In this document: positions 1 to 11,121 of the stretch, piece by piece | How positions within the stretch are numbered: the first letter of the stretch is position 1 | Layout: each line of letters opens with the position of its first letter | Assembly (NCBI GenBank): GCA_041694835.1 | Contig: JBGFRZ010000078.1 | Coordinates: forward strand, 1-11,121 | DNA from: Ignavibacteria bacterium | GTDB lineage: Bacteria; Elusimicrobiota; Endomicrobiia; PHAN01 | DNA: 11,121 nt | Direction of reading: 5' to 3' | The notes under the pieces: generated by a model | What the model was told of the DNA's origin: nothing | The model's database searches: none | Seen by the model: only the letters and a program-made list of their open reading frames with translations | Translations under genes and position numbers: made by a program

Positions 1-5
1 TTTGT

Positions 6-118
6 TTTCGTCAGAAATATTATAGCAATTCCGGAGAGAAAATGCAAATGTTTTATCGTCGGATTTACCGACGAGAATTATTTCAAAGAACTAAAGAGGG
101 TTTTTCAACGCTCTCATT
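6..118 (-). repeat. Left copy of a perfect 113-bp inverted repeat bracketing the window
   Basis: 6-118 is the exact reverse complement of 11009-11121 by base-by-base comparison. Identity breaks at 119 vs 11008. The repeat may continue beyond the window. Confidence 0.98.
19..47 (-). promoter_or_regulatory. Outward-facing sigma70 promoter P2 (left copy)
   Basis: Minus strand TTGCAT (47-42), 17-nt spacer, TATAAT (24-19), with an extended -10 TGn (TGCTATAAT). Confidence 0.75.
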
Positions 119-144
119 TTACTAAAATAATCGCATAAAGTCAA
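116..144 (-). promoter_or_regulatory. Outward-facing sigma70 promoter P1 (left)
   Basis: Minus strand TTGACT (144-139), 17-nt spacer, TAAAAT (121-116). The -10 sits at the position equivalent to the TATAAT of the right copy. Confidence 0.7.
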
Positions 145-156
145 ATAACGAAATTT

Positions 157-185
157 TTGCAAAAAAGAGCAAAAATATATATAAT
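157..185 (+). promoter_or_regulatory. sigma70 promoter for the + strand gene cluster
   Basis: TTGCAA (157-162), 17-nt spacer, TATAAT (180-185), about 70 nt upstream of the ATG at 254. Confidence 0.7.
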
Positions 186-253
186 GTAAGCAAGGTTGTC
201 GGTGGAAGTAAAACACAGACGCTGCTATGCTTGATAAAGAAGCGGAAATTAAA

Positions 254-3200
254 ATGTCGTCATCAAAATTTTTTATTCTTTTATCGTTAATCTTTTCACA
301 CATTTCACTTTTTGCGGCGCCGCAAAGTGTAACCAATCTTACCGCGCTGGCCGGAAATGCTACCATAAATTTAACATGGTCGCCTAACACTGACATAAAT
401 ACTGGCGATAAATATGAAATAGAATTTTCCTCGTGGTCGGCGTCGAGTTTTACCTTTCTAACCAACATACTCCATCCCGGCAACACACATCAGGTCTTAA
501 ATCTCATAAACGGAAATACATACTTCTTCAGGGTGAGGGCATCTACCGGGGCGGGAACATTCATAGGTCCATGGAGCGATGTCCGAAGCACGGCCCCGTG
601 GGTTAATTTGGGCATCCCACAATGGTCACTCGCCGATACAAGAGCGGTTTCCACAACTACTATCAACTGGTCGTGGTTATTGGCAGCAAATGCCAGTGGT
701 TATAGAGTAATTAATTCCACTTCCGGAGAAAATTTTTCAGGCAATTTATCGGCATCTGCAACATTCTGGCAACGGACAGGACTTACTCCCAACACATCGG
801 CCGCTTTTTATATTCAGGCATTCAACGGACTGCTGACGGCTAACTCATCAGATAGAAGGATTTTTTCCTGGGCGAATCCACCGTCAAACTTCATGTCTCC
901 ACTTCAGCCGGGAACAACCATAGTCAACCTCGACTGGTCCCCTAATAACAATCCTTCGTCGGTGAGTTACTCCCTCGAGCGCTCATCTACCGATGTGTCA
1001 AACTGGCAGTTGATTGCTTCTTTCTTAACCTCAACTACGCATCAAGATCCGGGGTTGCTTGAAAAAACGACTTATCATTACAGGGTTTGGGCTATAAATT
1101 CCGACTCTATTGAAACGGATAAAGTTTCGGTGTCCACAAGAACGGGCAGTATAAATCCTCAGCCGCCGACATTGATGCTCGCCGAAAGTTGGACATTGGA
1201 CGGCGAAGTGCGTCTGACATTTACTGCACCATACGATGACTCTCCCGATGAATCTGTCAAAGGATACATTATAAAATACGCGACTTACGCATTAACCGAG
1301 CCAAACTGGTCGGCGCCCTCATCGTCGACAGCGCCTCAAAATATAACGCCCTCCGCACCGGGAACCGGACAGACGCATGTCATAACAGGACTTTATCCCG
1401 GAACGACTTTTTTCTTCGCGATGAAGTCAGTTGATGAGGTGGAAAATGAGTCGGGCATCTCCGTGGTGCAATCCACCGTAGCCAGAGACAATCTTCCAAG
1501 TTTACCGACGAACATATCGGCTTTGGCCATTTCTGAAACAGGCATTACGATTTCGTGGACGCTTCCGGCATTTTTGGGTTTTGACGACCGCAGCAGATAT
1601 TATGTCTACCGCGCAACTTTCCCTTTTACATTGACAACACAAGCGACTTTTTTCACATGGCAATCTCATCCCAACGCTTCCCTTACAGATTCTTCTATCG
1701 ATAATCCATTAAGAAGAGAAACGACATACTGGTATCGTGTCGCCTCCGAAGACCTCGGAAACGGCCCCGCCGGAAGCGGTCTTTTTTCAATTCCGCTTGG
1801 CTCAACGACGCTTTCAGAGATGGTTTCTGCACGAACACCCGATTTAACCCCGCCGCCAGCCATAACAACTTTATCTGCTCTAACTGGGAATATAGAAGGA
1901 AGAATAAATCTTTCGTGGACTTCTCCGACGGACAACTCGATAAGACTAGGTGAAGGCGCAGGCGAAAATATCACGGGCGGTCGTTTCAGAATCAGATGGA
2001 CGACAGACGCCGCTGAAATTTTCAGCACAGCGACATTCAAGGTTGAAATTCCGACAAACACTTTTCCGGGCGCGATGAACAATTATTTGATAACGGGTCT
2101 TGCAGTCGGCGATACATATTACATAAGAATATGGACGGCGGACGAATCGGGGAACTGGTCGTTGGTCTCAAACGGAGCGACGACTTGGGCACAGTGGGAT
2201 GTCACTGCGCCCGGGGCGATAACTTCGATAACTGCCTCGGCAAACTGGAGAAGAATAAATCTTTCATGGACAGCCCCGGGAGACGACGGATATTTGGGAG
2301 TGATGACAGGCAAATTTGAAATACGACTTTCGACAGTCGCCACAATAACGAATGAGACAATATGGAACGCCGTTCCGGATTTTGAACCCTACAGAATAAT
2401 TGTTTCCACATCGGGGGTTTCGCCGGGGAGCATTCGCTATTTTGTCATCACGGGACTTACCAATTCAGCGACATACTTTGTCGCCATAAAATCCGCGGAT
2501 GAAAGAGACAATTGGTCGGCAATTTCTTCAACTTCTCCGGCATCTATGCCGCTAAATTTGCCGCCCGGAAATTTTAATCTTTCATCGCCGCCTGACGGCT
2601 CGCAACTTCAGACGCTCACACCTCAACTCACGTGGGAAGCCGCCTCAGACGGCGATATACCGTTCGGGGACTCCATCAGATATAATGTTTTATATTCTAC
2701 CAGCGTCAATTTTGAAGTCGCTATAACAACTATTTCGCCGGATTTGTCGGGCGCAACATACATCGTCCCGAGCGGACATTTTCTCGAGGACAGACGATAT
2801 TTCTGGAGAGTCGTGGCAAGTGACCTCGATAATTCCACAAGGTTTTCGGCACAAACATTTTCCGCAGTAATAAATGTCATGAATTCAACACCGACGGCGC
2901 CCGTCTTGTCGTCACCACCGACAAATACAAGAATAAATACGGCAACGCCACAATTAAACTGGGTGGCTTCAACCGACAGCGATTTGCCTGACATTTTAAG
3001 TTATAGAGTCGATTATTCGCTGACGCCCGACTTTTCGGTATTTGTATCTTCACTCAATATTTCCACAACCTTCTACACAACTCCGCAACTGCTTGAAAAC
3101 ACAACATACTGGTGGCGGGTCTTTGTTAGCGATGGACAACTGACAGTTCAAAGCGGCGCTACATTTTATTTCCGTGTAAATGCCGTCGCCGAGGCACCGA

Positions 3201-5164
3201 GTTCATTTAATCTTTTAACGCCGACCGACAATGTCAGGTTCGCCACAACCACAATTAATTTCACATGGGAGACAACTACCGACCCTGACCCCGACGAAAG
3301 CGTCAGATACGATTTAATATGGTCTCAGTTCGCAACGTTCTCGACAAGCACAACAGTAAGCGGACTAACCAACACGACGGCACAAATAGTTCTTCCGCAC
3401 GATAATTCTTATTATTACTGGAAAGTGGAAGCCGTTGGAACAGACGGATTAAAACGTCCGTCCAATCAGTCGTTCCTAAAATTTTACACCGACATCGTAA
3501 AAGAACTTCCCTTGGCTTTCAATCTTATCGAGCCGGGATTTGGTGTCATCATTTCAACGACACTAAGACCTATTTTTATATGGAGTGATGCTATTGACCC
3601 TGACCCCGCCGATATTGTCCGGTATTACATTGAGATGTCACCAAACAGCGATTTTGCAGGCGCCATAGCGATACCTACGGGCAGTGATACTTTTTATCGG
3701 CCACTGTCAAATTTGTCGGATCAAACCACATACTTCTGGCGCGTCAGAGCGGCGGGACATCAAGGAAGCCCTGCCGACAATGTCGACGGCGGTTGGACAT
3801 TTTCAACAACAGGGTTTTTTGTAATCTCCATGGTCAACTATCCACCCGGCCCATTCGAACTCATCTCCCCCAATAACGGGGAAATAATAAATACGAAATC
3901 TCCGACTTTCAAATGGCAGGCCTCCGTTGACAGCGATGTCGGTTCTTCGGTGAGTTATTCAATATATATTTCGACTTCGTCCGATTTTTCAACTCTTTCT
4001 TATTCAAGCCGCAACATTACATCTACGCAAATTGCAATCGCTCAAAAACTTTTTGAAAACAAAGCCTATTTCTGGCGCATCGTAGCCAGGGACAACAGAG
4101 ATGCTTTAACCGCTTCAACGACATTTAGTTTTTTTATACCCGTATTGACAATACCCCAGAGAGTCGCCGGCATCAGAGCATATTTGAGCCCAGCGGCGAC
4201 ATCTTATACTCTGATGTGGTCGGAGACAATCTATAATGCCGACGGCTCAATCATAGATGACTTGAAGGGGTATAACATTTATAAGTCTCTGTCCATAGCA
4301 GAATTAAAAACGTCGCCATTACATATTTTTGTTGAAAAAAACACTCCTACATTTACCGATATTGTGAGCGGCAATTTTTTCTATAAGGTTCTTTCAGTTG
4401 ATACATCCGGCATAGAAAGCGAAGATTCTCTGATTACAAGAACCCTCAATCCGGAGGAAGTCGTCGTTAAGTCCCCCGACGGATTGTTGACGGCGGAAAT
4501 CCCTCCATCAACGGTAAAACAACTTCATTCTGAAAACAATCAATTCAAAAACAATTTAATATTGTTTATTTCCACTCACCCCACAGACACCGCATTGAGG
4601 CAGTTTGCCGTCGAAATCATCAAGCCAAACGGCGACAAAATCGGACGTCATACTTTTCCCGAAGCAGTCAAACTACGATTCGAAAATAAAAAACTCAAAG
4701 CATCGTCAAGAAATGTCTCCGCGCTTGGCGACAATGACGTCGGTCTATATTGGTACAACGGCATTGAGTTCATGAAAATGCCTTCTCATATAGAAAGCGG
4801 TGGCACAATTTCAAACATAGCCAACACGGGGACATACCAGATAAGGCAAGTCAAAAAAACTTCGACTCAAGACTTGATATCAATTTCTCCGCCGAAGGTC
4901 TTTACTCCCGATATAGCCCCTTATGAAAAAATCCAATTCTTCGTAGAAAATGCCGCGGGTGATAAGGTAAAAGGCGAAGTATTTGACATCAGAGGCAGAA
5001 AAATCGCCGCTCTGAAAATATTGGGCGATTCTTCAGCCACTACAGTCAATCTTGTCTGGGACGGAAAAGATGACGAAAACCGGATTGTTTCAAAAGGAAT
5101 ATACATTTATCAAATCTCTATCGGTGAAAAAATCATTAACGGCACAATAGTGGCGGCAAGATGA
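254..5164 (+). CDS. Large secreted fibronectin type III / Ig-like repeat surface protein with C-terminal FlgD_ig / T9SS type-B-like (gliding-motility-associated) sorting domain
   Basis: ORF 227-5164. The ATG at 254 gives a clean signal peptide (MSSSKFFILLSLIFSHISLFA|AP). Repeated FN3 signatures (LxW...Y...L...TxYxFRVxA; DxTxPxAITxLxA; LSWTAPGDDG) are followed by five ~100-aa Ig-like modules. The C-terminus reads PKVFTPD...VFDIRGRKI...VWDGKD...GIYIYQI...GTIVAAR. Confidence 0.85.
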   Translation: MSSSKFFILLSLIFSHISLFAAPQSVTNLTALAGNATINLTWSPNTDINTGDKYEIEFSSWSASSFTFLTNILHPGNTHQVLNLINGNTYFFRVRASTGAGTFIGPWSDVRSTAPWVNLGIPQWSLADTRAVSTTTINWSWLLAANASGYRVINSTSGENFSGNLSASATFWQRTGLTPNTSAAFYIQAFNGLLTANSSDRRIFSWANPPSNFMSPLQPGTTIVNLDWSPNNNPSSVSYSLERSSTDVSNWQLIASFLTSTTHQDPGLLEKTTYHYRVWAINSDSIETDKVSVSTRTGSINPQPPTLMLAESWTLDGEVRLTFTAPYDDSPDESVKGYIIKYATYALTEPNWSAPSSSTAPQNITPSAPGTGQTHVITGLYPGTTFFFAMKSVDEVENESGISVVQSTVARDNLPSLPTNISALAISETGITISWTLPAFLGFDDRSRYYVYRATFPFTLTTQATFFTWQSHPNASLTDSSIDNPLRRETTYWYRVASEDLGNGPAGSGLFSIPLGSTTLSEMVSARTPDLTPPPAITTLSALTGNIEGRINLSWTSPTDNSIRLGEGAGENITGGRFRIRWTTDAAEIFSTATFKVEIPTNTFPGAMNNYLITGLAVGDTYYIRIWTADESGNWSLVSNGATTWAQWDVTAPGAITSITASANWRRINLSWTAPGDDGYLGVMTGKFEIRLSTVATITNETIWNAVPDFEPYRIIVSTSGVSPGSIRYFVITGLTNSATYFVAIKSADERDNWSAISSTSPASMPLNLPPGNFNLSSPPDGSQLQTLTPQLTWEAASDGDIPFGDSIRYNVLYSTSVNFEVAITTISPDLSGATYIVPSGHFLEDRRYFWRVVASDLDNSTRFSAQTFSAVINVMNSTPTAPVLSSPPTNTRINTATPQLNWVASTDSDLPDILSYRVDYSLTPDFSVFVSSLNISTTFYTTPQLLENTTYWWRVFVSDGQLTVQSGATFYFRVNAVAEAPSSFNLLTPTDNVRFATTTINFTWETTTDPDPDESVRYDLIWSQFATFSTSTTVSGLTNTTAQIVLPHDNSYYYWKVEAVGTDGLKRPSNQSFLKFYTDIVKELPLAFNLIEPGFGVIISTTLRPIFIWSDAIDPDPADIVRYYIEMSPNSDFAGAIAIPTGSDTFYRPLSNLSDQTTYFWRVRAAGHQGSPADNVDGGWTFSTTGFFVISMVNYPPGPFELISPNNGEIINTKSPTFKWQASVDSDVGSSVSYSIYISTSSDFSTLSYSSRNITSTQIAIAQKLFENKAYFWRIVARDNRDALTASTTFSFFIPVLTIPQRVAGIRAYLSPAATSYTLMWSETIYNADGSIIDDLKGYNIYKSLSIAELKTSPLHIFVEKNTPTFTDIVSGNFFYKVLSVDTSGIESEDSLITRTLNPEEVVVKSPDGLLTAEIPPSTVKQLHSENNQFKNNLILFISTHPTDTALRQFAVEIIKPNGDKIGRHTFPEAVKLRFENKKLKASSRNVSALGDNDVGLYWYNGIEFMKMPSHIESGGTISNIANTGTYQIRQVKKTSTQDLISISPPKVFTPDIAPYEKIQFFVENAAGDKVKGEVFDIRGRKIAALKILGDSSATTVNLVWDGKDDENRIVSKGIYIYQISIGEKIINGTIVAAR

Positions 5165-7185
5165 GAAAAACAGGCAATAGGGGACAGGGGACAGAGAACA
5201 GAGAACAGAGAACAGGGGACAGAGAACAGAAAACGGGAAGCGGGAAGCGGGAAGCGGGAAGAGTTTTAAACCCTTCACCCTTTACGCTTTCCGCTTTACG
5301 GCATTTTATTCTCTCATCTCTGACCTCTCGCCTCTCACCTCTGACCTCTCATCTCTATTTGCTATTTGTTATTTGCTATTTACTATCCCCTATCCCCTAT
5401 CCCCTATCCCCTATCCCCTACCTTTATGCTTCTTTCGACAACTTCGGCGCGGGAGCAAGAACAATCGGCATAGGCGGAGCTTATACCGCCGTCGGAGACG
5501 ACGCTTTCGGAGCTCTTTACAATCCCGCGGCCATTTCATATCTTAAAAGGGGTCAGTTGGCGGTAGAATACGGGAGTCTCCATCTCAATCTAACAGACCG
5601 CTCCAATTTATACAACGGATACATTGGCTTCGCATATCCTTTTATAAAAGAAGAAATTATAGAAACAAAAGTTGTTGAGACCGGAGAGTTGGAAGGGGGG
5701 ACGACATCTGAGACAACGACCCCGGTCGAGCAAAAAGTCACCGTTGAAACAACTATAAAAAGAACGCTGACAAGCGCCGTTATGATTGGGTATAAAACAC
5801 TCTCTTTAAGCGGGACATACAGCGAAAATTTTTATCATATTACTTACGGAAGATTTATCAATAAATTCATTGCTTTGGGTATGACGGTGAAAGCACTCCA
5901 TGACAAATTTATAATCGATGACTATCTGAGAAACTCGCCTGTTTTTAAGTACGGCGCAACGGACTCTAAAAACAACGTATCCTTCGACCTTGGCGCCGCC
6001 ATAAATCCTCTCCCAAACTTTTATATAGGTTTATCCGCCCTCAATATAAATGAGCCGGACATGGGATTTCTGAGAGAGGACCGCGTTTCGAGTGTTTACA
6101 GACTCGGCGCCGGAATGAGAAAGACCGACTCCAGATTCGCGCTTGACCTTTCATATCACAGCAGAAAAAAATATCTGGAGATTTTGGGTGGATTCGAAAG
6201 ATACTTTGGGATTTTGGGTCTCCGTGGAGGCATCGGATACGGCGAGCGGAAACACAGCAGAAACGCGCAAATATCAACAGGTGTGTCATTCAACATCAGT
6301 AAATCGATTTCGCTCGACTACGCCTTGAACTACCCGCTTACGCATCTGAAAAACACATACGGCTCTCACTGGCTCTCATTTATGTTTCAGTTTGGAGAGC
6401 GGCCTGCGGAAGACATGGAACCCGGCAGCATTGAAAGAGCATACACAACTTTGTGGGGAGAAAAACTTCAACTTGAAAGCAGGGTTTCACAACTTGAACA
6501 AGAGAAAAGAAAACTAGAAGAGGTTTTAATCGAAGAAGCAACTGCGAGAATAAGAGAAAGAATAAGAAAGACGAAGGAAGAAGCCATAACCCCGACGTCC
6601 GTCAGAATAACCGAGAAAAAAGAAATGTTTGTTTCAAAAGCGGTAACGGTAACGAGAACACACATTGTAAAAAAGGGCGACACTTTGCAGTCACTGGCTG
6701 AGAAATACTACAAAAACTCTAAACTCTGGATTGAAATATACAACGCCAATAAAGATGAGATAGGCCGAGGAGGAGCGTTGAGGGTTAATCAGGTAATAGT
6801 GATACCCCCGCTTGCAAGAGCGGTCGAACCCGCTGAAACACCGAAAGAAAAAATTGAAATTACTCCGGCGTCGCCAATAATAACACCGACGGAACCGCAG
6901 ATACAAAAGGCGGAAGAGCCAAAAATCGAACTCATTACTCCTGTCACCGAAAAAACAAAGAAAGACGAATCTAATGTTGAGGCTGCCCCACCCCCTAAAC
7001 AAGAAAAACAAAAATCGGCGGTTGTAAAACGCAAAACTCACATTGTGATGGCAGGAGAAAATTTGCGTATAATAGCCGAAAAATACTATAATAACCCGGA
7101 AAAGTGGAAAGATATACTTGACGCGAATAAAGATAAAATAATTCGCGGCCAGATAAAGCCCGGCTTGGAGTTAGTTATTCCGTAA
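5161..7185 (+). CDS. PorP/SprF-like (PorV/PorQ-related) outer-membrane beta-barrel fused to a coiled coil and two LysM domains
   Basis: ATGA overlap with the upstream stop. The barrel (~5431-6396) starts with GARTIGIGGAYTAVGDDAFGALYNPAA, contains GLSALNINEP and ends YGSHWLSFMFQFG. Coiled coil ~6430-6585. LysM1 6658-6807 (HIVKKGDTLQSLAEKYY...IYNAN...VIP). P/E/K/T-rich linker. LysM2 7036-7182 (HIVMAGENLRIIAEKYY...ILDAN...LVIP). The start is less certain because the N-terminus is repeat-encoded. Confidence 0.8.
   Translation: MRKTGNRGQGTENREQRTGDREQKTGSGKREAGRVLNPSPFTLSALRHFILSSLTSRLSPLTSHLYLLFVICYLLSPIPYPLSPIPYLYASFDNFGAGARTIGIGGAYTAVGDDAFGALYNPAAISYLKRGQLAVEYGSLHLNLTDRSNLYNGYIGFAYPFIKEEIIETKVVETGELEGGTTSETTTPVEQKVTVETTIKRTLTSAVMIGYKTLSLSGTYSENFYHITYGRFINKFIALGMTVKALHDKFIIDDYLRNSPVFKYGATDSKNNVSFDLGAAINPLPNFYIGLSALNINEPDMGFLREDRVSSVYRLGAGMRKTDSRFALDLSYHSRKKYLEILGGFERYFGILGLRGGIGYGERKHSRNAQISTGVSFNISKSISLDYALNYPLTHLKNTYGSHWLSFMFQFGERPAEDMEPGSIERAYTTLWGEKLQLESRVSQLEQEKRKLEEVLIEEATARIRERIRKTKEEAITPTSVRITEKKEMFVSKAVTVTRTHIVKKGDTLQSLAEKYYKNSKLWIEIYNANKDEIGRGGALRVNQVIVIPPLARAVEPAETPKEKIEITPASPIITPTEPQIQKAEEPKIELITPVTEKTKKDESNVEAAPPPKQEKQKSAVVKRKTHIVMAGENLRIIAEKYYNNPEKWKDILDANKDKIIRGQIKPGLELVIP
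5171..5424. repeat. Composite heptamer tandem array with purine arm 5171-5261 and pyrimidine arm 5271-5424
   Basis: 13 in-phase 7-mers (CAGGCAA, TAGGGGA, CAGGGGA x2, CAGAGAA x4, CAGAAAA, CGGGAAG x4), a 9-nt spacer, then 22 in-phase 7-mers (CCCTTYA/CGCTTTM, CTSRYCT x6, YTATTTR x4, CTATCCC x5, plus degenerate units). Confidence 0.95.
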
Positions 7186-7186
7186 A

Positions 7187-7373
7187 TAGAAGATAGTGGT
7201 TAGCAAATAGCAAATAGTGAATAACAAAAAGTAGATAGTAGATGGTAGCGAGCAGACAGTAGATAGTAGCGGGTAGATAGTAGACAGGGGGAACAACCCT
7301 CGCTACTCCCTACTACGCTGATGCTCTGCTGTTCTTATGCACTTATGCACTTATGCACTTATGCACTAGTGCT
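7187..7373. repeat. Intergenic heptamer plus octamer tandem array
   Basis: 15 in-phase degenerate 7-mers at 7187-7291 (TAGCAAA, TAGTAGA types), a complementary CTCGCTACTCCCTACTA stretch at 7299-7315, then CTTATGCA x4 (7334-7365) and CTAGTGCT. Confidence 0.9.
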
Positions 7374-7383
7374 CTGCTAAATT

Positions 7384-8748
7384 ATGAACGACTCCTGGGA
7401 TTGGATACAATCCGAACTAAAAAAACTCGAGGAAGAGCTGCCGTCGGACTCACAAATGCTTGAAGTTGTCGACGCTATAAGCGTGGCGGACTTCTGGAAA
7501 AGGCGATACGACGAAGAAAGGCTCCTCTGGGAGAGAAAAATCCAACTTAAGGAAGATGAAAAATCCCAGTTGAAGGAAAAAACACAGACGCACGAATTGG
7601 CACTAAAAGAACTCGACTGGAAACTCAAAGAGCTCGACCGTCGATGGCATCAAGAAAAACTCCTGTTGGAAGACCGCATAAAAACGAAAGAACTCGAGGC
7701 CGAGAGGCAGAAAGACAAACTTCAGTGGGAAACGAGGCTAAAAATCCTTGAAGAAGAAAACAAAAATCTCAAGACAAAACTCTCCGGTATAACGGGCGTG
7801 CCTTTTGTTGCTGGCGAAGCCGCAACCCTTGAAATATCGTCTCACGAAAAAGATGTAAGCGACGCCAAAGTGCAGGAACTCAAGGAGCGATTGAAAATTT
7901 CCGAAGAGGAGCGCAAACATTCGCTCGGAAAATTGGATGAAGAAAAAAACTCGCTCCTCAGACAACTTGCCGAAAGGGAAAAATCATTCGTCGAAGAAAA
8001 ATCTCAGTGGGAAAAGCTTGAGAAAGATGTCACCTCAATAAACCAGCAGATGACCGAACGGCTGAAACTTCTGCATGAAAGGGAACAGGACCATTTCACG
8101 GTTCTCGAGGATTTGGCGCGCGGCTTCGCGCACAGGGTTAGAAATTATCTCGGAATAATTTCGGGAACAGTCCAACTTTGCATCGCAAACTACAAGATGG
8201 AGGAAGAGCTCAAAAACCAGCTCGGCCTTGTCGATCAGAATGTCGCAGACATGCTTAAGTCCATAGAAGAGTTTCTATCTCTTGCCAGAATTCCACAGAT
8301 GAATTTACAAAAGCTTTCCATTGAACAGGTTGTGGAAAAACTCCTTTTGAATCTGGATGATAAATTCAAAACGGCCAGAATCACGGTAGAAAAAAATCTC
8401 TCGCAGACACATCCTCTCGAAATAGACGAAAAACTCCTATCTGACGCTATCTCCAACATACTAAACAACTCAATCGAGGCTATGGGAGGCGGCGGAACAA
8501 TCGTAGTATCAACTGAGTATCTCCCACAAAAATCTAATATAACGCTCAAAATATCCGACACCGGTGCCGGAATATCTGAAATACAACTCAAAAAGATATT
8601 CCAGCCATACTTCACCACAAAGAAAAATAAAAAGGGGCTGGGTCTGACCGCCGCAAAAAGAATCGCCGATCTTCACGGAGCAAAACTCTCGGTTGAAAGT
8701 GAAAAATCAAAAGGAACAACCGTTACTATGAACTTTATGGTGAAATAG
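7384..8748 (+). CDS. Soluble histidine kinase-like protein (long N-terminal coiled coil, HisKA, HATPase_c)
   Basis: E/K/L-rich coiled coil of ~240 aa with no TM segment. H-box-like LARGFAHRVRNYLGIISG, N box SNILNNSIEAM, G1 ISDTGAGI, F box IFQPYFTTK, G2 GLGLTAAKRI. Confidence 0.9.
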   Translation: MNDSWDWIQSELKKLEEELPSDSQMLEVVDAISVADFWKRRYDEERLLWERKIQLKEDEKSQLKEKTQTHELALKELDWKLKELDRRWHQEKLLLEDRIKTKELEAERQKDKLQWETRLKILEEENKNLKTKLSGITGVPFVAGEAATLEISSHEKDVSDAKVQELKERLKISEEERKHSLGKLDEEKNSLLRQLAEREKSFVEEKSQWEKLEKDVTSINQQMTERLKLLHEREQDHFTVLEDLARGFAHRVRNYLGIISGTVQLCIANYKMEEELKNQLGLVDQNVADMLKSIEEFLSLARIPQMNLQKLSIEQVVEKLLLNLDDKFKTARITVEKNLSQTHPLEIDEKLLSDAISNILNNSIEAMGGGGTIVVSTEYLPQKSNITLKISDTGAGISEIQLKKIFQPYFTTKKNKKGLGLTAAKRIADLHGAKLSVESEKSKGTTVTMNFMVK

Positions 8749-9291
8749 ATGACTGCATTCCGCAACATTGTCAAAATAAGCGCTCCAATCGATGAAAAAA
8801 AACTTTCGAAACTTAAATGCTCGGACGCTGTGGCGATGACGGGGACGATATATACAATAAGGGACATGTCGCTAAAAAAATTAAGAACTCAAAAAAAAGC
8901 GGTTTTAAACTTTAAAAACGCCGCGGTATATTTCTGCGCCCCGACGGATTCAAAAAAACCGGGTATACCCATCGGAGCATTCGGTCCTACGACAACCGCA
9001 AGGATGGAAAGCGGCATACCTTTCCTTTTAGGTGCCGGCGCGAAGACCATTATCGGCAAGGGTCCGATATCGGAAGGATTAAAAAGACTTTTTTCGAAAA
9101 ATAACTGCGTTTATCTTTTGGCGACGGGTGGATGCGGGGCATACTACTCGAAATTCGCGAAGTCCTCAAAAATAATTCTCTTCCCGGAACTCGGGCCGGA
9201 AGCCGTGCGGGTTGTCGAGGTAAAAGATTTTCCTCTCGTTGTAGCTGTCGATTTGAAAGGAAAAAATATTTTTCATGCTTCTAACAATTGA
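8749..9291 (+). CDS. Fe-S hydro-lyase beta subunit (class I fumarate hydratase C-terminal domain / TtdB family)
   Basis: Motifs GTIYTIRD, GPTTTARM, IIGKG, GGCGA, ELGPEAVRVVEVKDFPLVVAVDLKG. 180 aa. The ATG directly follows the upstream TAG. Confidence 0.92.
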   Translation: MTAFRNIVKISAPIDEKKLSKLKCSDAVAMTGTIYTIRDMSLKKLRTQKKAVLNFKNAAVYFCAPTDSKKPGIPIGAFGPTTTARMESGIPFLLGAGAKTIIGKGPISEGLKRLFSKNNCVYLLATGGCGAYYSKFAKSSKIILFPELGPEAVRVVEVKDFPLVVAVDLKGKNIFHASNN

Positions 9292-10111
9292 TATTGGTAA
9301 TACAAACATAACTTTCGGCATATTCAAAATGGAGGGCGGCAAAGCCTCAAAATCTCCGCTTCAGATGTGGAGGATGGCAACTAATTCGAACCAAACCTCC
9401 GACGAATATGGAACAAAAATGCTCGATTTCCTGCATTATGCTCTTTTAAACAAGGAAGATTTGACCGGCGTAATTGTGGCAAGCGTCGTGCCCGCTTTAA
9501 ACTCGACGATTCGAAACGCATGTTCTTCTTATCTGAAAAAATCTCCCATTATAGTAGAAAATGAAAGATTCTACGGGACAAAGTTGAAGATAAATGTTGA
9601 AAATCCGTCAGAAGTAGGTGCCGACAGGATTGTCAATTCTCTGGCTGCGATTGAATTTTTCGGCGGACCTGTTATAGTGATAGACTTCGGAACGGCGCTG
9701 ACATTCGACTGCATCAATGTCAAAAACGAGTATATCGGCGGGGTGATAATGCCAGGCCCGGCGATCAACATCAACGCTCTATCCAATAATACCGCTAAAC
9801 TCCCTCGGGTAGAGCTTAAAAAAACAAAAAAGGTGATAGGAAGAAACACTGTGGAGTGCATACAATCAGGCGTCTATTTCGGATATATCGGTTCGATTAA
9901 AAAGATGATAAAAGATATTAAAAAAGAGCTCGGCGCAAGGACAAAGGTTGTCGCCACCGGAGGGCTTGCTTCGGTTTTTGCCGAAGATTTAAAAGAGATA
10001 AAATCCATAATGCCGGAGCTCACGCTTGAAGGATTAAGAATACTCTGGAACACCGTTCTAGAACACAAGAGCACAAGAGCACAAGGCACAAGAGCACAAG
10101 TTTTGACTTAA
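9275..10111 (+). CDS. coaX: Type III pantothenate kinase
   Basis: Motifs DIGNTN, SVVP, GADRIVN, DFGTALTFD, GGVIMPG, GRNTVECIQSG, TGGLA, LTLEGL. Overlaps the upstream gene by 17 nt. Confidence 0.96.
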   Translation: MLLTIDIGNTNITFGIFKMEGGKASKSPLQMWRMATNSNQTSDEYGTKMLDFLHYALLNKEDLTGVIVASVVPALNSTIRNACSSYLKKSPIIVENERFYGTKLKINVENPSEVGADRIVNSLAAIEFFGGPVIVIDFGTALTFDCINVKNEYIGGVIMPGPAININALSNNTAKLPRVELKKTKKVIGRNTVECIQSGVYFGYIGSIKKMIKDIKKELGARTKVVATGGLASVFAEDLKEIKSIMPELTLEGLRILWNTVLEHKSTRAQGTRAQVLT

Positions 10112-10170
10112 GCACTTAAGCACTTATGCACTTATGCACTTATGCACTTATGCACTTATGCACTTGTGCA
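10062..10170. repeat. Quasi-palindromic octamer tandem array
   Basis: AGCACAAG-type x5 (10062-10100, one unit missing a base), TTTTGA, then CTTAAGCA x2, CTTATGCA x5 and CTTGTGCA (10107-10170). The reverse complement of AGCACAAG is CTTGTGCT. Confidence 0.95.
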
Positions 10171-10180
10171 CTACTATATC

Positions 10181-10186
10181 AGGAGG
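10181..10186 (+). promoter_or_regulatory. Shine-Dalgarno sequence
   Basis: AGGAGG 4 nt upstream of the ATG at 10191. Confidence 0.85.
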
Positions 10187-10190
10187 GTTT

Positions 10191-10934
10191 ATGAAAAAGT
10201 TGTCTGTATTTGCCTTGTTATTGATTTTCTCAACCGCAAACGCCGGGATGTTCGATGAATTTAAAAAACGATTGTCGGGGGTGGCCGACGATGTCGTTCA
10301 GAAAAGACTTGACGCCCTTTGCGAGGACGTCGGGGCGGTTATGGTTATGACAGGATTCCATCAGGCAGGGAATCTTGCCGGCACACTGCCCGGCTTTGAC
10401 ATCGGCCTCCATGCCGGATACAAAAAGACGTCTGATAAAAACGATATAATCAAGGCGGTGGGAATAGACGCCCTTCTGCTTCCCGTCTTGCAGGCAGAGC
10501 TCGGCATACCTTACATAAACACGGATTTAATACTGCGATATACCAGCTATGAAAACTCTTCTCTTCTTGGAGGGGGCGCAAGATATGGTCTACTCAAAAC
10601 CATACCTTTTGATCTGACTTTTCTGATAATATACAACAAACTCAATGTCTCGGCGGGTGAAAATAAATTCACCGCGACGTCAATGACGGGAAGCGTCGGA
10701 CTCAACATCAACATGCCGGTTATTTCACCCTATCTGGCTTTAAGCGTAGATTCAGCCGAGATAGAGCCAGACTCCTCAATCACGACGAAAAAAAGCAAGA
10801 CAACACTAACAAGACTTGATACTGGAATGAATGTGAGTCTTATGCCTTTCACATATCTAAACGTCGGAGCATCTTACCTCATTTCTTCTGAAGCGGGTCT
10901 GGGTTTCAGAACAGGTATTGGCGTAAAATTTTAG
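10191..10934 (+). CDS. Secreted probable outer-membrane beta-barrel protein (possibly DUF6588-like), 247 aa
   Basis: AGGAGG RBS, signal peptide MKKLSVFALLLIFSTANA|G, amphipathic beta strands and a C-terminal aromatic BAM-type ending (RTGIGVKF). The family assignment is tentative. Confidence 0.75.
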   Translation: MKKLSVFALLLIFSTANAGMFDEFKKRLSGVADDVVQKRLDALCEDVGAVMVMTGFHQAGNLAGTLPGFDIGLHAGYKKTSDKNDIIKAVGIDALLLPVLQAELGIPYINTDLILRYTSYENSSLLGGGARYGLLKTIPFDLTFLIIYNKLNVSAGENKFTATSMTGSVGLNINMPVISPYLALSVDSAEIEPDSSITTKKSKTTLTRLDTGMNVSLMPFTYLNVGASYLISSEAGLGFRTGIGVKF

Positions 10935-10939
10935 TTTTT

Positions 10940-10985
10940 TGTATAGCGGAACTCTCGTCGCTTCACAAGCTATACATTTAATTTT
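10940..10985 (+). terminator. Possible weak intrinsic terminator or operator
   Basis: TGTATAGC (10940-10947) and GCTATACA (10969-10976) form a perfect 8-bp inverted repeat followed by TTTAATTTT. The 21-nt loop is large for a terminator. Confidence 0.35.
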
Positions 10986-11011
10986 GCCAACTTTGAATTT
11001 TTTTGTATAAT
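10984..11011 (+). promoter_or_regulatory. Outward-facing sigma70 promoter P1 (right)
   Basis: TTGCCA (10984-10989), 16-nt spacer, TATAAT (11006-11011). Confidence 0.7.
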
Positions 11012-11012
11012 G

Positions 11013-11046
11013 AGAGCGTTGAAAAACCCTCTTTAGTTCTTTGAAA
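11013..11046 (+). promoter_or_regulatory. boxB-like GAAA hairpin followed by boxA-like motif (mirrored at 81-114 on the minus strand)
   Basis: AGAGCGTT-GAAA-AACCCTCT (11013-11032, 7 of 8 pairs) then GTTCTTTGAAA (11036-11046), directly downstream of P1. Confidence 0.5.
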
Positions 11047-11079
11047 TAATTCTCGTCGGTAAATCCGACGATAAAACAT

Positions 11080-11108
11080 TTGCATTTTCTCTCCGGAATT
11101 GCTATAAT
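11080..11108 (+). promoter_or_regulatory. Outward-facing sigma70 promoter P2 (right copy)
   Basis: TTGCAT (11080-11085), 17-nt spacer, TATAAT (11103-11108), extended -10 TG. Confidence 0.75.
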
Positions 11109-11121
11109 ATTTCTGACGAAA

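Follow-up and report, generated by a model that had tools for sequence, protein, structure and literature searches.

Both tips of an 11-kb contig from a draft Elusimicrobiota genome very probably carry the outermost ~116 bp from the left end of a single insertion sequence (IS) of the IS5 family. The contig, JBGFRZ010000078.1 of assembly GCA_041694835.1 (hereafter C53), was analysed over its entire length of 11,121 nt, here called the window; the draft genome to which it belongs (G000) comprises 1.9 Mb in 89 contigs. An earlier note on this DNA had described an inverted repeat that brackets the whole block and starts at the -10 boxes of two outward promoters, and had considered that the block may invert. 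In our reading the apparently special 11-kb bracketed or invertible unit is a routine signature of a high-copy IS that fragments a draft assembly.

According to this explanation two independent IS copies would flank an 11-kb block of chromosome in opposite orientations, each with the left end toward the block and the transposase gene pointing outward. A de Bruijn assembler would have been unable to cross the repeat and the unique contigs would retain about one k-mer of the IS, with the remaining 5' leader, the ribosome-binding site (RBS) and the ATG located past the contig end. The IS and its relatives, which resemble miniature inverted-repeat transposable elements (MITEs), would insert into an AT-rich palindrome and duplicate the triplet TWA, and the right-hand insertion would have struck the -10 box of the next gene's promoter. 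Both flanking copies are presumably full length, and host promoters may now read into the element. Recognition of the IS would order at least two contigs (C53, the IS and C19 reversed) and cautions against taking contig-tip repeats for biology. The case is otherwise of modest interest, on the one hand for a recent burst of ~20 IS copies, accompanied by several MITE families with the same termini, in an uncultured 1.9-Mb Elusimicrobiota genome, and on the other for a family target that resembles a -10 box, so that real promoters appear to be split by some insertions, among them that at the right end of the window.

Element ends at the contig tips

The inverted repeat of 113 bp was confirmed: positions 6-118 are the exact reverse complement of 11009-11121 (113 nt, 0 mismatches), and when mismatches are allowed the similarity extends over 6-132 and 10995-11121 (97%). 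An exact match of this length is far beyond chance, yet it is not peculiar to C53. Its copy number, which the earlier note had proposed to count, was determined by a BLAST search of the window's first 135 nt against the genome. This gave 24 matches, 20 of them at most 49 nt from a contig end, always with the identical outermost base and in constant orientation; the 4 internal matches lie in C39 (two), C30 and C46 (one each). The 118-nt window end was not found by BLAST in 40 relatives.

All 178 contig ends of the assembly were clustered by similarity, where class A denotes the class of the window's ends and class B a second end class. Class A comprises 20 contig ends, and class B 21 contig ends and 2 internal copies. 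The contig-end copies are 97-100% identical and every one has a different flank, hence multiple near-identical copies are present at different sites, a mark of recent mobility. Roughly 20-21 near-identical copies of the IS are present in the draft genome, and the IS explains 41 of the 178 contig ends (20 left and 21 right). This bears out the proposal that the identical part is a piece of some unit that is duplicated and read outward at either end, for which a mobile element was among the options offered, and that the repeat is what broke the assembly at both ends: the unit is a multicopy insertion sequence, one end of which recurs at 20 contig ends.

The class A terminus reads ...GGGTTTTTCAACGCTCTCAT and that of class B ...GACTTTTTCAACACTCTCAT; the two agree at 16 of 17 terminal positions (ATGAGAG-Y-GTTGAAAAA). 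Since these termini of ~17 nt differ by one mismatch, classes A and B are read as the left and right inverted repeats (IRL and IRR) of one element. That they are ends of one element also follows from C30, where a miniature copy of ~275 bp joins a class A end to a class B end. Imperfect terminal inverted repeats are seen at both ends in the A and B classes, in C30 and in a complete relative from a metagenome (locus L037, described below).

Both copies in the window stand exactly at the contig tips and have a length that is set by the assembler, as one would also see if the repeat were an assembly error by which the same sequence became attached to both ends. We consider such an error almost certainly not the explanation, given that the same end adjoins 20 different unique flanks, with an identical junction base and target consensus throughout, that copies also occur internally in C39, C30 and C46, and that homologous elements are found in unrelated metagenome contigs.

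The length itself can be accounted for. Unique contigs extend 110-121 nt into the element in both end classes. C22, which has a single-nucleotide polymorphism of its own in its class A end, extends 166 nt, corresponding to 119-120 nt past that polymorphism, and runs 49 nt farther than the other class A contigs before merging with the other copies. This points to a de Bruijn assembler with k of about 119-121 that collapsed the repeat. Because about one k-mer of the repeat is kept per unique contig, the repeat seems to be 113-118 bp long; its length of 113 bp is an artefact of assembly, and the true repeat comprises the element in full. No assembled contig is smaller than 2519 bp, and the element's interior is absent.

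In transposase-sense order, the part that is retained consists of the terminal repeat, a hairpin, the element's own promoter and the start of a leader. The corresponding features of the window are:

1..116, minus strand: copy 1 of the IS left end, cut by the contig end; its transposase would read leftwards
Reverse complement of ~100-116, minus strand: IRL of copy 1, TGAGAGCGTTGAAAAA...
56..74, no strand: hairpin in the IS leader with a 7-bp stem and a terminator-like score in the direction out of the element
19..48, minus strand: the element's own sigma-70-like promoter, TTTGCA-18-TATAAT with an upstream TG, or alternatively TTGCAT-17-TATAAT
11011..11121, plus strand: copy 2 of the IS left end, cut by the contig end; its transposase would read rightwards
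11053..11071, no strand: hairpin of copy 2, mirror of 56-74
11079..11108, plus strand: the element's own promoter in copy 2, mirror of 48->19

The element's own promoter-like site lies upstream of the transposase RBS, and a homologous element at metagenome locus L036 has the same layout. Beyond the point where the window ends, C22 and C39 continue with AGGAGG, ATG and then MYKEQSKQTSFFGN..., an open reading frame (ORF) that opens with MYKEQSKQTS; the internal copy of the element in C39 is truncated. The idea of a transcribed leader therefore stands insofar as a promoter and a leader are present in the identical part, the unit that follows being a transposase gene. An rrn or other operon leader was not supported: the window gave 0 matches to rRNA or leader RNA families in Rfam at the gathering threshold and 0 tRNA genes in ARAGORN, and the sequence beyond its end opens the transposase ORF. 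In agreement with what had been noted from the letters, no transposase or recombinase domain was found by Pfam in the six long plus-strand ORFs of the window (6 of 28 listed ORFs scanned). Since a 135-nt leader, a 345-codon ORF (by analogy with the related transposase P0002, see below) and a 3' part of ~140 nt would make up the element, its length here is estimated at ~1.3 kb.

Whether the copies that flank the window are of this length bears on an alternative in which one or both of them are miniature, MITE-like and non-autonomous derivatives without the transposase gene. Such derivatives exist. The ~275-bp copy of C30 is a precise deletion of the ORF between two CAAAATG repeats, and in C62, where the gene is mostly missing, a class B end runs into the 3' end of the transposase gene and diverges ~45 nt farther in, the remainder of the gene being absent. 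The interior of the flanking copies, moreover, is not visible in the assembly. However, the stretch that C22 shares with the other copies passes the deletion junction of the miniature and continues into 16 ORF codons, and divergence sets the two miniatures (~95-98% identity) apart from the contig-end copies (97-100%). Miniature flanking copies are thus quite improbable.

Transposase and family assignment

A stub of 48 aa from C39 was compared with a large protein collection and gave a single match, P0002, a protein of 345 aa whose first 19 residues are identical to the stub encoded beyond the window end. P0002 contains the domains DUF772 (78 bits), DDE_Tnp_1 (67.8 bits) and DDE_Tnp_1_6 (30.5 bits), and passes the NCBIfam IS5 model NF033581 with 175 bits against a cut-off of 140. 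Its highest-scoring NCBIfam model is that of IS1182 (NF033551), at 232.6 bits and under the cut-off of 270, with the N-terminal DUF772 region aligning to model positions 2-152. The IS1182 family was rejected on account of this score and of the length of P0002, 345 aa against 488 model positions.

Within the genome, a decayed copy in C46 has an end that is 90% identical to the window's and retains DUF772 and DDE fragments. The DDE fragment is 69% identical to P0002, and the copy matches the same models with scores under their cut-offs. P0002 itself is encoded at metagenome locus L036, the left end of which is 79% identical to that of the window and continues in the order terminal repeat, hairpin, TATAAT, GGAGG, ATG. 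Comparison with L036 identified what adjoins the class B end in C62 and C30 as the 3' end of the transposase gene. A complete relative of ~1.31 kb, with inverted termini TGAGACYGTTGAAAAA and one ORF of 345 aa, is found at metagenome locus L037. Exact scans of the genome and metagenome contigs with a 22-nt pattern across the transposase start gave 0 matches, and no relatives of P0002 were found in the genome contig collection. We conclude with high confidence, which applies to the reading as a whole, that the element is an unnamed and ordinary IS5-family insertion sequence with a single DDE transposase gene.

Target site, junctions and genes of the block

A total of 121 element ends of the terminal-motif family, each with at least 45 nt of flank, was collected. 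The flank consensus after ...TCTC is A-T-W-A-T-A, with successive counts of 22/22, 22/22, 21/22, 18/22, 20/22 and 15/22 in class A and of 113, 103, 107, 97, 103 and 74 over all 121 ends, and abutting elements read CTCTCA-TWA-TGAGA. Judged from these flanks the target is an AT-rich palindrome, approximately GTA-TWA-TAC, of which TWA is the putative duplication. A 3-bp duplication, with an element that ends in T...A, and a 5-bp duplication of ATWAT are a matter of definition, since both predict the identical empty site.

When read toward the element, the target and the element's terminal T together give TATAAT, TATTAT or TAAAAT at most junctions. The "-10 box" at both repeat edges is present because the duplication of TWA, combined with the terminal T, regenerates a TATAAT-like hexamer. 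In G001, a relative of the same family, a related MITE stands exactly at TATAAT, and the orthologous site in G002 is uninterrupted, which gives a filled and an empty version. The junctions of the window hold the following features:

116..144, minus strand: left outward promoter-like site TTGACT-17-TAAAAT; the last base of the -10 is the element's terminal T and the remainder is target DNA
117..119, no strand: TTT target triplet of the left junction, a putative 3-bp target-site duplication
10984..11011, plus strand: right outward promoter TTGCCA-16-TATAAT, a putative native promoter of the next syntenic gene with its -10 split by the insertion
11008..11010, no strand: TAA, duplicated from the target by the right-hand IS copy; C19 has an identical TAA after the class B end

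A consensus scanner recovered both of the promoter-like hexamer pairs reported before (minus 144->116, plus 10984-11011), and -10-like hexamers are indeed found where the repeat starts. What falls is their reading as two different promoters at the same register of a repeated unit: at most of the junctions such a -10-like hexamer is present as the site targeted by the insertion, and the right-hand one belongs, as it seems, to the native promoter of the next gene, split by insertion.

A -35 element was scored as at least 5/6 matches at a spacing of 16-18. It is found at register in 5/44 class A and class B junctions, two of which are the window's own. A promoter register was considered as a general feature of the junctions and rejected, as the apparent enrichment of 5/44 over 2.7% of all genomic TATWAT was lost under an intergenic control, in which a -35 accompanies 8.1% of 556 TATWAT sites (P = 0.28). 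Without the two junctions of the window the count is 3/42 (P = 0.67), and for all end classes it is 13/121 (P = 0.18). In a crude tally of 41 ends the nearest flanking gene reads away from the element in 18 cases and toward it in 20, with none in 3, so that there is no upstream bias; the tally is noisy, the window's left flank being miscalled owing to a spurious 131-aa ORF. The target accounts for the -10, which is found systematically at the repeat edge; a -35 is no general feature.

These counts also bear on the proposal that the element seeks promoters, that is, that it targets real -10 boxes and rebuilds them with host promoters driving the transposase. The TATWAT core of the target and the real-looking promoter at the right junction are in its favour, and so are two MITEs, the one of G001, which lies in a TATAAT just upstream of a gene, and a C-type one in C39 that lies in the IS's own -10. 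But a -35 at register is no commoner than at intergenic TATWAT and the orientation of flanking genes is unbiased, and a plain sequence preference for an AT-rich palindrome accounts for the data. Promoter seeking is therefore unlikely in our view. Slightly less likely still is that the termini and the target preference of the IS/MITE lineage evolved to hit sigma-70 -10 hexamers and to rebuild them at the junction. If this were true, insertion would hand a host promoter to the element (at its left end, in the transposase sense direction), a host gene displaced in this way, for instance that of 116 aa on C19, would rely on transcription reading through the element, and ~70 such ends in a 1.9-Mb genome would represent promoter rewiring on a large scale.

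The right junction could be reconstructed. In G001 the block is followed by genes whose counterparts lie on C19, inward from its right (class B) end. On the plus strand the window reads ...GTA-TAA-TGAGAGCG and C19 reads ...CTCTCA-TAA-TGTCTGCG, with matching triplets. The rebuilt empty site consists of TTGCCA, 16 nt, TATAAT, ~30 nt, GAGGAGG and the ATG of an ORF of 116 aa that lies at the right end of C19 and is 66% identical to its G001 counterpart. Because the triplets match and the rebuilt unit of promoter, RBS and ATG is complete, the site is read as a native promoter split by a simple insertion. A short direct target duplication is hence seen in one reconstructed pair (TAA/TAA), which is supported by synteny. 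Synteny and the TAA match together suggest the local order C53, IS (left to right end) and C19 reversed. The displaced 116-aa gene may possibly be transcribed by read-through, in the same direction as the transposase.

For the left junction several candidate partners were rejected. C55 has the complementary AAA at a class B end, but the orthologue of its response regulator lies on another G001 contig. C88 likewise has the complementary AAA, but the matches of its nearest gene elsewhere are only 21-28% identical. C25 (feoB), to which synteny points, ends inside feoB at a homopolymer and not at an IS end. A short piece between C25 and the window was probably lost among contigs of less than 2.5 kb. 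As a separate observation, a single-domain response-regulator ORF in C55 (48748-48762) begins 7 nt after the AAA that adjoins the class B end; this insertion lies directly at the gene start and therefore leaves no room for a leader.

Several points weigh against the proposed IS. Triplet matching and synteny with G001 did not find the partner contig of the left junction. For the transposase, the sequence available is that of a relative, and the left end of this relative has a DNA identity of only ~79%. With the interior of the element unassembled, the two copies flanking the window may also be miniature derivatives instead of full-length elements. The complete related element at L037 (1363-2679) has flanks GTG and ACA without a matching duplication; it may be an old copy or the product of recombination between copies.

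Inside the junctions, the six genes of the window all have counterparts on contig C3 of G001, in unchanged order and orientation and with 46-65% protein identity. The features of the block, assigned by Pfam and synteny where nothing else is stated, are:

157..185, plus strand: promoter-like site TTGCAA-17-TATAAT facing the Fn3 gene, a consensus match only
227..5164, plus strand: surface-type Fn3-rich protein of 1645 aa, with a syntenic G001 homologue (54% identity over 1659 aa)
5161..7185, plus strand: PorP/SprF-like and LysM protein (674-aa ORF)
7384..8748, plus strand: histidine kinase
8749..9291, plus strand: fumarase C-terminal (beta) type protein
9275..10111, plus strand: type III pantothenate kinase
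10134..10934, plus strand: DUF6588 protein

Judged by this synteny, the block is ordinary chromosome and not cargo. It has to be weighed against the suggestion that block and inverted IS pair form a composite transposon, or a segment that inverts by recombination and so swaps host promoters between the flanks. The geometry does resemble a composite transposon and any inverted IS pair can recombine; contigs bounded by the IS on both sides, furthermore, show all end arrangements, namely A/A (C53, C20), B/B (C19) and B/A (C34, C69), as is expected from random orientation. However, the six housekeeping and surface genes keep the G001 order and orientation, the right neighbour is syntenic too, and the right IS copy has a TAA/TAA duplication of its own, as one would find after simple insertion at this site, and no further copy of the block was encountered. 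What was found, synteny and an IS with its own duplication, is not what marks a mobile IS-flanked segment, and we rate a composite or inverting unit as highly improbable. Two independent insertions of the IS are preferred.

Some further observations concern the block itself. Homology of the 674-aa ORF to its relatives begins near residue 54-67, and its first ~54-66 codons overlap arrays of tandem repeats (5161-5400), so that the real start codon probably lies downstream of these arrays. The spacers 5184-5420, 7184-7367 and 10060-10172 contain back-to-back tandem repeats of 7 or 8 nt (ACAGAGA, CTATCCC, CTTATGCA). Genome-wide, TRF reported 403 arrays, with period 7 (151 arrays) and period 8 (54) accompanied by periods 14, 16 and 21 (46, 42 and 37). 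In G001, a MITE of ~180 bp with the same termini lies just upstream of the counterpart of the Fn3 gene on contig C3 (locus L027, G001:C3:11812-14831, at ~1330-1520); together with the IS of the window, this means that different family members struck the same intergenic region in two genera.

Related miniature elements and comparison with known systems

At least four other short element classes with the terminus TTTTTCAAYNNTCTC are present in G000, with 32 ends of C-type, 20 of D-type, 4 of E-type and 21 others. Complete MITE-like units of ~100-300 bp lie inside contigs, for example at C6:23270-23445, C42:2789-2964 and C30:14448-14707. At the end of contig C39 (62872-63083), a C-type MITE with the same termini lies inside the TATAAT of the IS's own transposase promoter and has cut off the left end of that IS copy, which illustrates the family's target preference clearly. 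Elements are also often found end to end, sharing one TWA, at C34:15784-15816, C68:8592-8624, C39:988-1020, C15:4597-4630 and C45:11011-11040, an arrangement which suggests that element ends recreate a good target beside themselves.

Among the relatives, a 20-nt terminal motif that occurs 69 times in G000 was found 6 and 9 times in two relatives of the same family, 3 times in G009 and once in G037; the other 36 genomes contain none, and the reversed control gave 0 everywhere. In the same-family relatives the 4 two-ended sites that were inspected are MITE-like elements of 130-190 bp, and 3 of these 4 have matching triplets (TAA/TAA, TAA/TAA and TTA/TTA). In G009 and G037, neither a partner end nor a transposase was found within 3 kb at 4 of 9 inspected loci, and a fifth (L028) is cut by a contig end. 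Neither this element nor any IS5-type element that targets a TATAAT-like site was the subject of a paper in the full-text search listings, which is not proof of absence.

Three known kinds of system invite comparison. Composite transposons of the Tn10 or Tn5 type carry inverted IS arms, and the window is alike in having inverted copies of one IS around a segment. It differs in that the segment is syntenic core chromosome and the right IS has a duplication of its own; nothing suggests mobility.

MITEs mobilised in trans are matched by the families of ~100-300 bp, whose termini and TWA flanks are those of the IS, in G000 as well as in the two relatives of its family. The shared termini suggest that the present transposase may mobilise them. 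These elements differ in that they neighbour the finding and are not themselves the finding.

The closest likeness is to the IS5 group. According to Table 2 and to sections 17 and 24 of an IS survey (PMC3281130), members of this group measure 1282-1485 bp and have inverted repeats of 16-18 bp and direct repeats of 4-6 bp, while the IS427 group has lengths of ~830-865 bp and repeats of mostly 2 bp, the IS903 group has a length of ~1050 bp and repeats of 9 bp, and the sole IS1182 member measures 1653 bp; most of the ISs listed in that survey have a single ORF. The present element resembles the IS5 group in its transposase, with DUF772 and DDE_Tnp_1 and a score above the NF033581 cut-off (the sequence being that of the relative P0002), in its imperfect terminal inverted repeats of ~16-17 bp and its short target duplication, and in the length of the complete relative at L037 (~1.3 kb). 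It differs in the duplication, which is 3 bp (TWA) here, or 5 bp (ATWAT) when the outermost A and T are assigned to the target. The TGAGAG... termini and the long palindromic AT-rich target are the present lineage's own.

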